This document shows positions 13,970 to 51,637 of a DNA stretch of 64,000 bases, one piece after another (the stretch's first letter is position 1; every line of letters begins with the position of its first letter). The translations under genes were made by a program, and so were the position numbers. Under the pieces are notes generated by a model. The model saw only the letters and a list, made by a program, of their open reading frames with translations. It had not been told where the DNA came from and did no database searches. The stretch comes from a virus (taxonomy: Duplodnaviria > Caudoviricetes), in the IMG/VR virus record IMGVR_UViG_3300028197_000002; one strand, 5' to 3'.

Positions 13970-13998
13970 TTGACATATTAGATTTTTTGTAATAAAAT
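13970..13998 (+). promoter_or_regulatory. sigma70 promoter
   Basis: TTGACA-17 bp-TAAAAT. Confidence 0.75.
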
Positions 13999-14038
13999 GT
14001 TAGTGGAATTTTTAACTTTAAACTTAAAAGGATTTAAG

Positions 14039-14461
14039 ATGAGTGAGTATGTTTTAGAAGCAGAAGAAGACATAGATATAGACGTAGAACTAAAAAATAA
14101 TGAAGATTTAATTGAACAAATAGAAGAAATAGATGGTTTGTCCAAACAGGCCATTTCTAATTATTTTTTAAATGAAGAAATGTATACTGGAGATTTAATT
14201 GAGAAAAGTCTAATTCATTTGCCCTATTATGTTTTATTGGTTAGAAATACATCTGTTTCAGAGGGAGTTGTGAAAGCTTATAAAATGATTGAAGATTGTG
14301 GTTTTAAAGATTCTATTTCTATAAATAAAAGTAGTATGCCAGAAGATGTTAAATTTGTTTTAAATTTGATAAAAAAAATACAAAGAGAAGTTTCTCAAGA
14401 ATTTGTTGGTGGAATATTGTTGATGCATTTAGAGTTAATTGAAGGAATAGAGATGTGGTGA
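14039..14461 (+). CDS. Hypothetical protein
   Basis: ATG after an AAGGA RBS, downstream of the promoter. Confidence 0.7.
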   Translation: MSEYVLEAEEDIDIDVELKNNEDLIEQIEEIDGLSKQAISNYFLNEEMYTGDLIEKSLIHLPYYVLLVRNTSVSEGVVKAYKMIEDCGFKDSISINKSSMPEDVKFVLNLIKKIQREVSQEFVGGILLMHLELIEGIEMW

Positions 14462-15702: not shown

Positions 15703-15766
15703 GATTTTACTATATTAGGTAAACTCTAGAGTTGGAGATAAGGAGGTGAATTTTCCTCTCTGACAC

Positions 15767-15805
15767 AAACGGTAGAATTTTTTAAAATTATTCTGCCGTT
15801 TTTTT
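15767..15805 (+). terminator. Rho-independent terminator
   Basis: AAACGGTAGAA/TTCTGCCGTTT stem followed by a T7 run. Confidence 0.8.
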
Positions 15806-15812
15806 ATAAATA
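15805..15812 (+). promoter_or_regulatory. T4-type late promoter TATAAATA
   Basis: Exact motif 5 nt before the ATG of the virion gene block. Confidence 0.75.
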
Positions 15813-15817
15813 TACTT

Positions 15818-45534: not shown

Positions 45535-45849
45535 TTGGAGTCTCTTATGTTTTTGAGTAATAAAAATTTAAATTTCTTTCCTTTGATAATGAGTACTCTC
45601 ATTATAGCTACTTTGTTTACTTTTAGATCCATAGAGAATAAAAGAAAATTTATTCAGAATAGCAAAACAACATTAATTGTTTTGGAGAGAGGTTTAGAAA
45701 ACACTAGGGATGTGGAGAAAGATTTAGAAAGATTAACCTACCAAAATGTTGAAATTGAATCTTTTGGGGGTGTTACTTATGTTAAAATAAAATGCCCTCC
45801 TGATAAAACTCCTTTTTTCAAAAAATTAATACGAGACTTAACGGAGTAA
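45535..45849 (+). CDS. Membrane-anchored hypothetical protein
   Basis: AGGAG upstream; N-terminal TM. Confidence 0.6.
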   Translation: MESLMFLSNKNLNFFPLIMSTLIIATLFTFRSIENKRKFIQNSKTTLIVLERGLENTRDVEKDLERLTYQNVEIESFGGVTYVKIKCPPDKTPFFKKLIRDLTE

Positions 45850-45851
45850 AA

Positions 45852-46271
45852 ATGGCCATATCAAAAGGAACAGTAAGAGTTGTAAATGGAACATACCAGC
45901 CGATCAGAAGTTCTGAGATGGAAAGAAGAGTTAGAAGAGGCAATGTCAGAATGGACTCGATAAAAGGAGCAATTCCGCCTCCTTTTGAGTATCGTCAAAC
46001 TGATGATGGCAAAAACACTTTTGAGATGAATATAAGATGTGTATCGAAGGTCCACTTGTTAAAAAGTGGAATAGCGGTTGAAACTGATAATTATGTAAGG
46101 AATGAAAAAACTATTCGAAGTCTTGGAGAAAAAAACATAACTCAACAAATTAAATTAAACGCTTGTCAGTATTCTGGATACGAGGAAGCTTCTAAACTTA
46201 GAAAAAGAATTATTCAAACTCAAAAGTTAAAGAACTTAAATGATCAAGAATTTATTTTTGATATTGAATAA
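45852..46271 (+). CDS. Hypothetical protein
   Basis: GGAG RBS; 139 aa. Confidence 0.75.
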   Translation: MAISKGTVRVVNGTYQPIRSSEMERRVRRGNVRMDSIKGAIPPPFEYRQTDDGKNTFEMNIRCVSKVHLLKSGIAVETDNYVRNEKTIRSLGEKNITQQIKLNACQYSGYEEASKLRKRIIQTQKLKNLNDQEFIFDIE

Positions 46272-46434
46272 TTTTTTGGATAATTAATACTTAAATGTTT
46301 AATTTTTCTGTTTGAAATTTATTTATTTTATTTCTGTTTTTGGATAGCGATGTACATTGTAAAAAATACCGCTTCTTATTGGTCTAATTGGAAAAATTAA
46401 TTTAAATTAATTTTTAATATTGATAGATATTATT

Positions 46435-46524
46435 GTGACAAGGATGTTGCAATAAGGGCAAGGATGCCCGCTTTTTTATAGTGCTTTAAAGGCTGTTTAT
46501 TTATAAAATATTACAGTCTTTTTT
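46435..46524 (+). ncRNA. Candidate CsrA/RsmA-binding small RNA (or CsrA-regulated leader)
   Basis: Two hairpins with AGGA loops (GTGACA-AGGA-TGTTGC and GGGCA-AGGA-TGCCC), then a GGCTGT...ACAGTC hairpin and T6 tail. Confidence 0.55.
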
Positions 46525-46544
46525 ATTTGAAACAGGAGGTTGAA

Positions 46545-46769
46545 ATGACAGCATCATCAGTAACAGGCGTGAGCGGTCCAGGAATATCAAATGGCAAATT
46601 TAAGCCTGAGAATAGCTCTTGTAGATATGGTTGCGGTAGCGGCGGAAATTGCATGGAAGAAGAAACTGTTTCTTCAAAAAAGAAAGCTTATTGTTGTTCT
46701 AGTGGAGTTAAAACTTGTTCTTATTTAAAAGTTTTAAGATGTTCTAATTCTAGAATAAAAACTTGTTGA
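46545..46769 (+). CDS. Small Cys-rich protein starting MTASSVTG
   Basis: AGGAGG RBS; eight Cys in 74 aa. Confidence 0.7.
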   Translation: MTASSVTGVSGPGISNGKFKPENSSCRYGCGSGGNCMEEETVSSKKKAYCCSSGVKTCSYLKVLRCSNSRIKTC

Positions 46770-46774
46770 GGCAC

Positions 46775-46803
46775 TTTACATTTCTTGTTTTCTTTCCTAT
46801 AAT
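46775..46803 (+). promoter_or_regulatory. sigma70 promoter
   Basis: TTTACA-17 bp-TATAAT. Confidence 0.75.
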
Positions 46804-46917
46804 TAGGCAGCAACTTTGTTTCTTATTGAAACCCAGTTGGAGAATTTATGATCTAACAAATGTTTCTTTTTGTAAAAAAAATACTTTATTTTTATTTTCT
46901 GATTTGAAAGGGATTTA

Positions 46918-47217
46918 ATGTCGAGTTTTCATGTTGATGCAAGAGTATCTATTAAACTAGAGTATGAGTTGGCTGTTCGTTTAGGCGAGTTTTTACTTCA
47001 GTCAGGCACAGATGACAAGCAGGTTCTTGCTTTGGGCCATAAATTAAATAATTTAGAAGAAGAGGAAGAACAACAACAGCCTGTTCGTTTTTCTAATATT
47101 GTGAATAATTCTTATAAGTACAACAAGGATTGGAATAGCAATGAACATGGCTCTTCTGACGACAACAACGAAGAAAAGCCAAGAAGAATTAACTTAAGAA
47201 GACGAGCTACTGTTTAG
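46918..47217 (+). CDS. Hypothetical protein
   Basis: AAGGGA RBS; 99 aa. Confidence 0.75.
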   Translation: MSSFHVDARVSIKLEYELAVRLGEFLLQSGTDDKQVLALGHKLNNLEEEEEQQQPVRFSNIVNNSYKYNKDWNSNEHGSSDDNNEEKPRRINLRRRATV

Positions 47218-47317
47218 TTTTCAAATAACAAACAACAAGAAAGGTGTGCTGTTGTATGCGGCACTCCATTCTTGTTGTTTTTTTTAATATATTTTTTAAT
47301 TTTCAAAGGAGATTTGA

Positions 47318-47650
47318 ATGAGATTTTTATTAACAGTTGCTTTTTGTGTTTTTCCATTAACAATTTTTGCTCAAGATGAAGTTGTTGAAATTGTAAGTGA
47401 TGAAACTCCAAAGCAAGAAGTTGTAGAGGAAGTTTTGGATGAAAAGCCTATTATTGAGATTTTAGAACCTGTGGATGTAATTCCTCCAAAATGCGAAACA
47501 AATTTCGCAACTTTAAGAAGGGCCACTTGCACTTCAGTGAATTTTGTTGGTAAAGTTGCTTGTACGCCTTTTAAGGTGGTCAGCAAAGTTTTTTGCCATG
47601 CTAGAACAAGAAGAAGTTTTAGTTTTTTTAGACGAAGATGTTGTCGTTAA
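47318..47650 (+). CDS. Secreted small protein
   Basis: AAGGAG RBS; signal MRFLLTVAFCVFPLTIFA-Q; ends RRRCCR. Confidence 0.75.
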   Translation: MRFLLTVAFCVFPLTIFAQDEVVEIVSDETPKQEVVEEVLDEKPIIEILEPVDVIPPKCETNFATLRRATCTSVNFVGKVACTPFKVVSKVFCHARTRRSFSFFRRRCCR

Positions 47651-51472: not shown

Positions 51473-51637
51473 TAACTAATACTAAGCCTGTTTTAGGCAG
51501 ACTTTTAAGCTATCATCTAGATGATATATTTTTTCTATTATCTTTTTCACTAAAATTTAAAGCATCTCAAAAATAAATTAGTAAGATAATTCATTTTTTC
51601 TTGCTTTAAATTTTAGATTTGATTCATAAATAATCAC

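Follow-up and report, generated by a model that had tools for sequence, protein, structure and literature searches.

We describe here a small intergenic element in a stretch of 64,000 nucleotides (nt) of viral DNA (IMG/VR record IMGVR_UViG_3300028197_000002, Caudoviricetes), which we call the window. This DNA is AT-rich (about 32% GC) and encodes phage tail-fibre-like proteins and a DnaE-type polymerase. The element lies on the plus strand, in the gap between a gene for a protein of 139 amino acids (aa; 45852-46271) and a gene for a cysteine-rich protein of 74 aa (46545-46769), and is made of a promoter-like box followed by three hairpins, HP1, HP2 and HP3. An earlier note on this DNA had proposed that the gap encodes a late phage RNA of about 90 nt which, in the manner of CsrB or RsmZ, would sponge the regulator CsrA. 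All the features on which that proposal was built are present in the sequence, at the positions given for them, and we discuss below what can be made of them.

Coming from the upstream side, the first conserved feature is a box, TTGGAAAAAT (46388-46397, plus strand), which is invariant in all lineages though the spacer around it diverges or is deleted. It is separated from a second box, of the form TA(A/G)ATA, by 28 nt in the window and by 39-40 nt in the relatives, and may be a promoter-associated element; a similar box also stands upstream of the phage csrA gene described below. The second box (46422-46429, plus strand, with ATAGATA at 46423-46429) resembles the late promoters of phage T4 and ends 5 nt (TTATT) before G46435. 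HP1 (46430-46455, plus strand) folds with an 11-bp stem in the window and with 8-9 bp in the relatives; its core, GUGACA-AGGA-UGUUGC, occupies 46435-46450, and its AGGA tetraloop 46441-46444. HP2 (GGGCA-AGGA-UGCCC, 46456-46469, plus strand, loop at 46461-46464) follows directly and is invariant in all seven variants of the locus. After it come GC and a run of six U (46470-46477 on the plus strand, the U6 tract itself at 46472-46477), and the alignments show GC followed by at least four U at this place in all lineages. A terminator scan flags HP2 and its U tract as a weak intrinsic-terminator-like site in itself, a point absent from the earlier note.

About 20 nt after this U tract lies HP3 with its own U6 tail (46488-46524, plus strand), an intrinsic terminator whose structure is kept and whose sequence differs from lineage to lineage. 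Its core, GGCUGU...ACAGUC (46491-46518), is extended by AAA/UUU pairing to a stem spanning 46488-46521, the run of six T being at 46519-46524. Both HP2 with GC and U6, and HP3 with U6, have the layout of an intrinsic terminator (a GC-containing hairpin with a U tract right after it), and the latter folds in all lineages; in the lineage L008, the terminator between the twin hairpin and the ribosome-binding site consists of 8-9 GC-rich bp and U6.

The 74-aa gene (46545-46769, plus strand) is found directly downstream of the element in every lineage. Its Shine-Dalgarno sequence, AGGAGG (46534-46539, plus strand), supplies a third GGA (46535-46537), which can enter a hairpin of 3 bp at most, and the alignment gives no conserved hairpin for this region in the relatives. 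Only 26 nt separate HP3 from the ATG at 46545, and no conserved promoter-like element is present there, so that, with the gene adjoining the element in all lineages, it must be reached by read-through. The protein has nine cysteines and an N-terminal half that is strongly conserved across lineages (MTASSVTGVS...CRYGCG.GGNC); neither it nor its 139-aa neighbour had a match in Pfam, PHROGs or the ESM Atlas.

Folding and conservation of the twin hairpin

Minimum free energy and centroid folds both give HP1, HP2 and HP3. Folded alone, the 49-nt twin hairpin reaches -17.3 kcal/mol (z = -3.3), a value that none of 200 shuffled sequences equalled, and every variant is predicted to form both AGGA tetraloops, that of HP1 and that of HP2. 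HP1 folds poorly on the opposite strand, since its two G-U pairs become C-A there. The consensus obtained for CsrA by SELEX is RUACARGGAUGU (PMC7652899), and HP1 (ACAAGGAUGU) agrees with it at 10 of 12 positions and HP2 at 9 of 12; the sequences that flank the loops (ACA..UGU in HP1, GCA..UGC in HP2) also fit this consensus. The two GGA motifs are spaced by 20 nt, and by 23 nt in L045. Sites 10-63 nt apart can be spanned by a single CsrA dimer, with an optimum at about 18 nt (PMC7652899), so the 20-nt spacing falls inside the bridging range and near its optimum.

The same motifs stand out when the window is considered as a whole. The sequence CAAGGATG occurs five times in it (1.9 copies would be expected), and two of these copies are exact direct repeats, at 46439 and 46459, that is 20 nt apart. 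A strict scan of both strands of the 64 kb retrieved only eight hairpins with an A(N)GGA loop and a stem of at least 5 bp; HP2 is among them, and HP1 is just outside the filter because its stem has two G-U pairs. There is no second twin site of such kind in the 114 kb of this phage that we examined.

Relatives of the locus came from metagenome assemblies only: a blastn search with positions 45800-47300 against 50,697 GenBank phages gave no match, and neither the 139-aa protein nor an exact 35-mer of the element retrieved relatives from IMG/VR. The gene adjoining the element sits on metagenome contigs of 259-372 kb, and the 139-aa protein has homologues in two further lineages, at 65-68% amino-acid identity. 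A homologue search and a pattern scan of metagenomes yielded a locus alignment of seven distinct versions. Both hairpins, whose presence in relatives the earlier note had put forward as a check, are kept in all seven.

The conservation is strikingly uneven along the locus. Between the three main lineages a 47-nt core is 91.5-93.6% identical, when the flanking genes are at 66-79% (nucleotide identity) and the remaining spacer at 30-64%. Over a 5.1-kb alignment with L008, positions 46431-46475 show 96% identity, against 60% for the alignment overall and 49% for its non-coding DNA; they tie as the most conserved 45-nt window of the 5.1 kb, and are the sole non-coding block among the top 12. HP3 can be used as an internal control here, as each lineage has a hairpin and a U run at this place with a different sequence each time, which is what a plain terminator should show. 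HP3 thus drifts in sequence and HP1 and HP2 hardly do, which indicates that for the latter two the constraint bears on the sequence and not on the shape alone. The changes that do occur in HP1 preserve its pairing (G-U to G-C in L008, G-U to A-U in L045, and U-A to G-C in L017, this last being the compensatory pair 46433/46452), and its inner 8 bp are never broken. The use of G-U pairs by HP1, and a variable pair that runs GU/GC/AU, are the signs of an RNA read from the plus strand. The comparison supports strong purifying selection on the twin hairpins as a plus-strand RNA. The conserved block begins about 160 nt after the upstream stop codon, and is kept in L017, where most of the spacer is missing.

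A phage csrA gene and twin sites elsewhere

The earlier note had also proposed to look for csrA in the phage, and here the answer is positive. No csrA lies within the 64-kb window itself; a walk of four steps along the same JGI contig leads to one 48 kb downstream of the element (L032:15726-15953, minus strand). Its product of 75 aa scores 51.3 bits against PF02599 (cut-off 27), can be aligned from end to end with E. coli CsrA (PDB 1Y00) and has a residue equivalent to Arg44. The gene adjoins one for PRPP synthetase, and this synteny is kept in related contigs of 154-210 kb.

Two side observations can be made on this csrA. In the leader of the gene (L032:15726-16080, minus strand, takes in both gene and leader), three GGA motifs, one of them that of the Shine-Dalgarno sequence, lie no more than 35 nt from the start codon; the leader also has an 8-bp hairpin (GGGAAAUU..AAUUUCCC), and a TTGGAAAAAAT box resembling that of the element stands upstream. 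This layout looks autoregulatory. Moreover, more than 250 metagenomic CsrA proteins, many of them encoded on contigs of 150-490 kb, are about 70-95% identical to the phage protein over an aligned 65-100% of the length. The best cellular CsrA matches are 44-52% identical (several of them from Planctomycetota), with one exception at 70%, on a 13.7-kb contig of a metagenome-assembled genome. The phage protein looks like a member of a large and mainly phage-borne clade of CsrA, to go by these identities.

The twin architecture itself is also found outside this phage. When searched with the pattern ACAAGGATGT-N6-14-GCAAGGATGC, IMG/VR gave an unrelated phage group that has the same arrangement built on different stems (GAUACA..UGUAUC and GCGCA..UGCGC). 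The longest contig of this group, IMGVR_UViG_3300025652_000066 (62.6 kb), encodes two CsrA homologues (85.6 and 71.5 bits; the csrA copies are in L110 and L111). Its twin hairpin is located in the 245-nt leader of a capsid-like gene (L021:4197-4443, minus strand). The likeness to our element extends to two hairpins 4 nt apart with AGGA tetraloops (closed by ACA..UGU and GCA..UGC), a later hairpin with a U tract (here a small one with U4, about 25 nt before the ribosome-binding site) and a csrA in the genome. It differs in that its stems are unrelated, the gene downstream is capsid-like, the Shine-Dalgarno sequence of that gene is in a GGA hairpin of its own (with an AAGGAA loop) and no U tract directly follows the second hairpin. 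The whole leader stands behind a TTGACT/extended -10-like promoter.

Among the matches of the pattern in metagenomes, those with both motifs in hairpins of at least 5 bp are multi-GGA loci resembling small RNAs, with terminators, and leaders of flagellar genes; the matches without hairpins fall in coding DNA. Three further twin-site scans brought about 13 more viral families, in which the second site is mostly on the Shine-Dalgarno sequence. There are 48 further viral contigs with twin-site patterns, and about 23 of them hold both sites in hairpins of at least 5 bp. We had entertained the idea that twin-site phages generally carry csrA, and this has to be rejected: none of the 48 contigs has it, 16 of them being at least 90% complete. 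Twin sites thus need no phage CsrA, and the phages that lack the gene presumably address the CsrA of their host, if they address CsrA at all. Several of those with the second hairpin on the Shine-Dalgarno sequence are complete genomes (L124, L118, L122, L127, L125, L126, L154 and others belong here), and such twin consensus sites on ribosome-binding sites suggest that phage genes may be widely plugged into host CsrA.

Possible functions of the module

Late promoters of the T4 type have the box TATAAATA centred at -10, with a start about 6 nt after the box. The box before HP1 reads GATAGATA in the window (6 of 8 positions of TATAAATA), TATAAATA in L008, TATAGATA in L017 and L062, and GCTAGATA in L045 and L081; its position is constant, 5 nt before GTRACA, and its sequence varies between lineages. 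The promoters with which the earlier note had compared it are real: ATAAATA-N5-ATG occurs at 51626 and also at 15806, where a tail-fibre-like gene follows. This geometry makes a T4-type late promoter with its start at G46435 plausible, but the term "late promoter" used in the earlier note remains unproven, because of the imperfect box of the window and of the variation just described. Two other promoters were considered and rejected: TTGGAA (46388), taken as the -35 box of a sigma70 promoter, is 21-23 nt away from any -10-like hexamer, with a spacing that shifts by 11-12 nt between lineages, and the -10-like hexamers overlapping 46426-46433 lack conservation and would place the RNA start within HP1. 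We also discarded an antiterminator in which the 3' arm of HP2 would pair with HP3 (5' arm), as L017 alone permits this.

We think that the twin hairpin probably binds a protein of the CsrA family. This opinion is based on the match to the extended consensus, the dimer-compatible spacing, the constraint at the level of sequence, and the presence of csrA both in this phage and in IMGVR_UViG_3300025652_000066. The 45-nt module would dock one dimer, its two near-consensus GGA hairpins 20 nt apart being suited to the two RNA-binding faces of the CsrA dimer, and the likeliest partner is the phage's own CsrA. We are more tentative about the complete decoy scenario, which is the reading that we prefer but could well turn out to be wrong. 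Transcription would start at or just upstream of HP1, with the TA(A/G)ATA box as candidate promoter, and most transcripts would stop at the tandem terminators, either at HP2-U6 (about 45 nt) or at HP3-U6 (about 90 nt). The presence of two terminator-like sites before the next ribosome-binding site in all lineages fits such a short product. The short RNA would then titrate CsrA off GGA-containing ribosome-binding sites in phage or host mRNAs, and read-through transcripts would carry the 74-aa gene. If one goes a step further and imagines a complete phage Csr circuit, in which the phage CsrA would repress GGA sites until a two-site decoy, made from a late-type promoter, released translation at a set time, the proposal becomes an unlikely one in our opinion.

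The ~90-nt late sponge RNA of the earlier note thus survives in part: CsrA-type hairpins, terminators in every lineage and a phage csrA speak in its favour, whereas the promoter is unproven and a single dimer could be docked. The label "CsrB/RsmZ-like" overstates the case, as two sites dock one dimer and no Csr/Rsm model of Rfam matches.

Several points weigh against the decoy. The two sites amount to one dimer per RNA, to be compared with the 4-22 sites of known sponges. The candidate promoter box is imperfect in the window and variable between lineages, as said above, and the compensatory pair 46433/46452 lies upstream of the start predicted from this box, a hint that transcription begins slightly earlier or that the transcript is longer. 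Covariation, which the earlier note had suggested as a check, is too sparse over the seven variants to be significant (53-77 of 500 shuffles reach the score), the element having changed so little. As no promoter for the 74-aa gene alone would fit in front of it, the module is by position also its leader, and in most of the further viral contigs with twin sites these sites sit on ribosome-binding sites, besides the lack of csrA in the 48 contigs mentioned above. AAGGA is also simply Shine-Dalgarno-like. The RNA contigs, which come from three marine metatranscriptome runs, are confined to 46818-47177 and 47313-47488 and are uninformative on the element; no RNA contig matched in a search with the element alone, which says nothing either way on its expression.

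These contigs do tell us something about another gene. Those from two marine metatranscriptome studies start at 46818 and 46822 and run through a gene for a 99-aa protein (46918-47217). The starts fall just after a sigma70-like promoter, TTTACA-17-TATAAT (46775-46803, 11 of 12 matches), and the 99-aa gene, which is present in the RNA libraries, therefore probably has its own, host-type promoter.

The alternative that deserves most attention is a cis-acting leader through which CsrA would control the 74-aa gene, the short terminated RNAs being by-products; the earlier note had mentioned a leader of this gene as a second choice. We consider it rather unlikely, for reasons that are best seen by going through the three ways in which it might act, namely protection of the 5' end from decay (as in E. 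coli flhDC), altered stopping at HP2-U6 or HP3-U6, and repression by bridging from HP2 to the Shine-Dalgarno sequence (as in glgC). The layout is certainly favourable to a leader, since transcription has to cross the element to get to a gene that begins 26 nt beyond HP3 in a locus where the two are always adjacent. There are documented examples both of CsrA site pairs close to a 5' end and of CsrA affecting termination (PMC7652899); the latter concern Rho, and CsrA is not known to act on intrinsic terminators (PMC7652899). The twin hairpin of the csrA-bearing IMGVR_UViG_3300025652_000066 is in the 245-nt leader of the capsid-like gene, and the second site overlaps the Shine-Dalgarno sequence in most of the other viral matches. 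Against this, in every lineage a strong terminator has to be passed on the way from the module to the ribosome-binding site, and the Shine-Dalgarno region of the 74-aa gene is not conserved as a CsrA-type hairpin. In leaders of the glgC or hcnA type, a CsrA site on the Shine-Dalgarno sequence is within bridging range of a hairpin site; the element does not have this arrangement, as its GGA of HP2 is 72 nt from that of the Shine-Dalgarno sequence in the window, beyond the limit of 63 nt unless HP3 folds. It is because the sites are far from the ribosome-binding site, with two terminators in between, and because HP2 and its U tract form a conserved unit, that we rank the decoy above the leader.

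It may also be that something other than CsrA reads the loops. T4 has regulators acting at the RNA level, and its RegB endoribonuclease cuts GGA(G/U) motifs, so one can think of a RegB-type enzyme, of another phage RNA-binding protein, or of the anti-Shine-Dalgarno sequence of the 30S subunit (the 3' end of 16S rRNA can pair with AAGGA); the element could also be a plain 5' stabiliser joined to a terminator. The stems are indeed conserved more than recognition by CsrA is known to need, and a second small unit of the window, at about 15731-15800, combines a perfect but buried Shine-Dalgarno sequence with a terminator. We nevertheless find this unlikely, as the match covers the extended CsrA consensus (ACA..GGA..UGU) and not GGA alone, the two sites have a spacing compatible with a dimer, csrA is present in this phage and in the sole unrelated twin-hairpin phage whose contig is long enough to test, and no regB-like gene or other candidate reader was identified. 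Much less probable is an operator acting at the level of DNA, with incidental hairpins. The exact 8-mer CAAGGATG is repeated directly at 20 bp, that is two helical turns, beside a conserved AT-rich promoter-like region and just downstream of a candidate promoter, as one would like for such an operator. However, each repeat comes with inverted arms of its own, HP1 contains G-U pairs and changes (GU to GC, GU to AU, UA to GC) in ways that keep RNA pairing, unrelated sequences keep the hairpins and change the arms, and the repeat spacing is 23 bp in L045. That HP2 and HP3 would be the ordinary tandem terminators of the upstream operon, with AGGA loops by chance, is in line with the agreement of both with terminator rules but is hardly credible otherwise: no U tract follows HP1, the true terminator, HP3, drifts freely when HP1 and HP2 barely change in loop or stem, and the block starts some 160 nt after the upstream stop codon and is retained in L017 in spite of the spacer being mostly missing there.

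Known systems and further observations

The comparison with known regulatory RNAs helps to see what would be new here. No family of Rfam 15 matches the window at gathering scores, and in a lenient scan of 46380-46560 the best E-value was about 1, with no Csr/Rsm family among the matches; a search for tRNA and tmRNA was negative too. The element is thus outside any Csr/Rsm RNA family, and its likeness to CsrB or RsmZ would be a functional analogy, not membership. With CsrB/CsrC and RsmX/RsmY/RsmZ of Gammaproteobacteria it has in common GGA loops with flanks of the CsrA consensus, an intrinsic terminator at the 3' end and a csrA in the same genome. In contrast to them, it has two sites instead of 4-22, it belongs to a virus and immediately precedes a protein gene, and its candidate promoter shows no control of the GacA/UvrY type. 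E. coli McaS is a short CsrA-binding small RNA with few GGA sites, and EutX of Enterococcus and Rli55 of Listeria are decoy RNAs, made as terminated leaders, that sequester a regulator; the phage element would resemble these three by analogy, as a small RNA with few protein sites or as a terminated leader acting as a decoy in trans, there being no homology between them.

Among leaders controlled by CsrA, glgC has a hairpin site and a site on the Shine-Dalgarno sequence, flhDC two 5' sites that block RNase E, and pgaA a Rho termination promoted by CsrA (PMC7652899). Our element is similar to them in having, before a gene, two sites of the high-affinity type that one dimer could bridge and that may lie where the transcript begins, and dissimilar in that neither site overlaps the ribosome-binding site and two intrinsic terminators precede the gene. 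As for csrA in phages, homologues have been reported in 30 of 2517 phage genomes (PMC7366521), and one is gp47 of the Bcep22-like phage JC1 (PMC9144972). These reports share with ours a csrA gene (PF02599) and name no RNA partner, whereas here a candidate RNA is present in the same genome. A full-text literature search retrieved no paper describing a CsrA decoy RNA encoded by a phage. With this element, one may for the first time have a decoy or sensor RNA for CsrA that is carried by a virus.

The gene csrA is carried by about 1% of sequenced phages, where its role is unexplained (PMC7366521, PMC9144972). A near-consensus docking RNA for CsrA in the same genome now gives this question a handle that can be tested, with an RNA of 45 nt and a protein of 75 aa. 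Were the element to act in trans, a virus would be seen for the first time to encode an RNA that antagonises the Csr system, and this RNA would also be the smallest natural antagonist of its kind (one dimer per RNA). If it acts in cis, CsrA would be linked in a phage to intrinsic terminators or to the protection of a 5' end. Should the complete circuit exist, it would be a viral timer, protein and decoy RNA, made from a bacterial global regulator.

Three loci are finally worth a mention. In the window, a hairpin at 14023-14041 (CUUAAA-AGGA-UUUAAG) is directly followed by an ATG (14039, in frame with the open reading frame 13997-14461); the Shine-Dalgarno sequence would be in the AGGA tetraloop, making this a candidate for a start site controlled by CsrA in the phage. 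The intergenic unit at 15731-15817, of about 85 nt and with a fold of z = -4.4, hides a perfect Shine-Dalgarno sequence (UAAGGAGGUGA) within a stem and then has a strong 12-bp terminator, and directly after it comes the ATAAATA-N5-ATG of the tail-fibre-like gene; its GGA being in a stem and not in a loop, it is not CsrA-like. Outside the window, high-GC contigs of IMG/VR (about 60% GC, several of them classed as proviruses: L132, L136, L142, L143, L148, L149, L155 and L159) have a recurrent locus with three GGA hairpins, GGCAAGGACGCC, GGCAAGGAUGCC and CGGCAAGGAUGCCG, which looks like a provirus-borne small RNA of the Rsm type.

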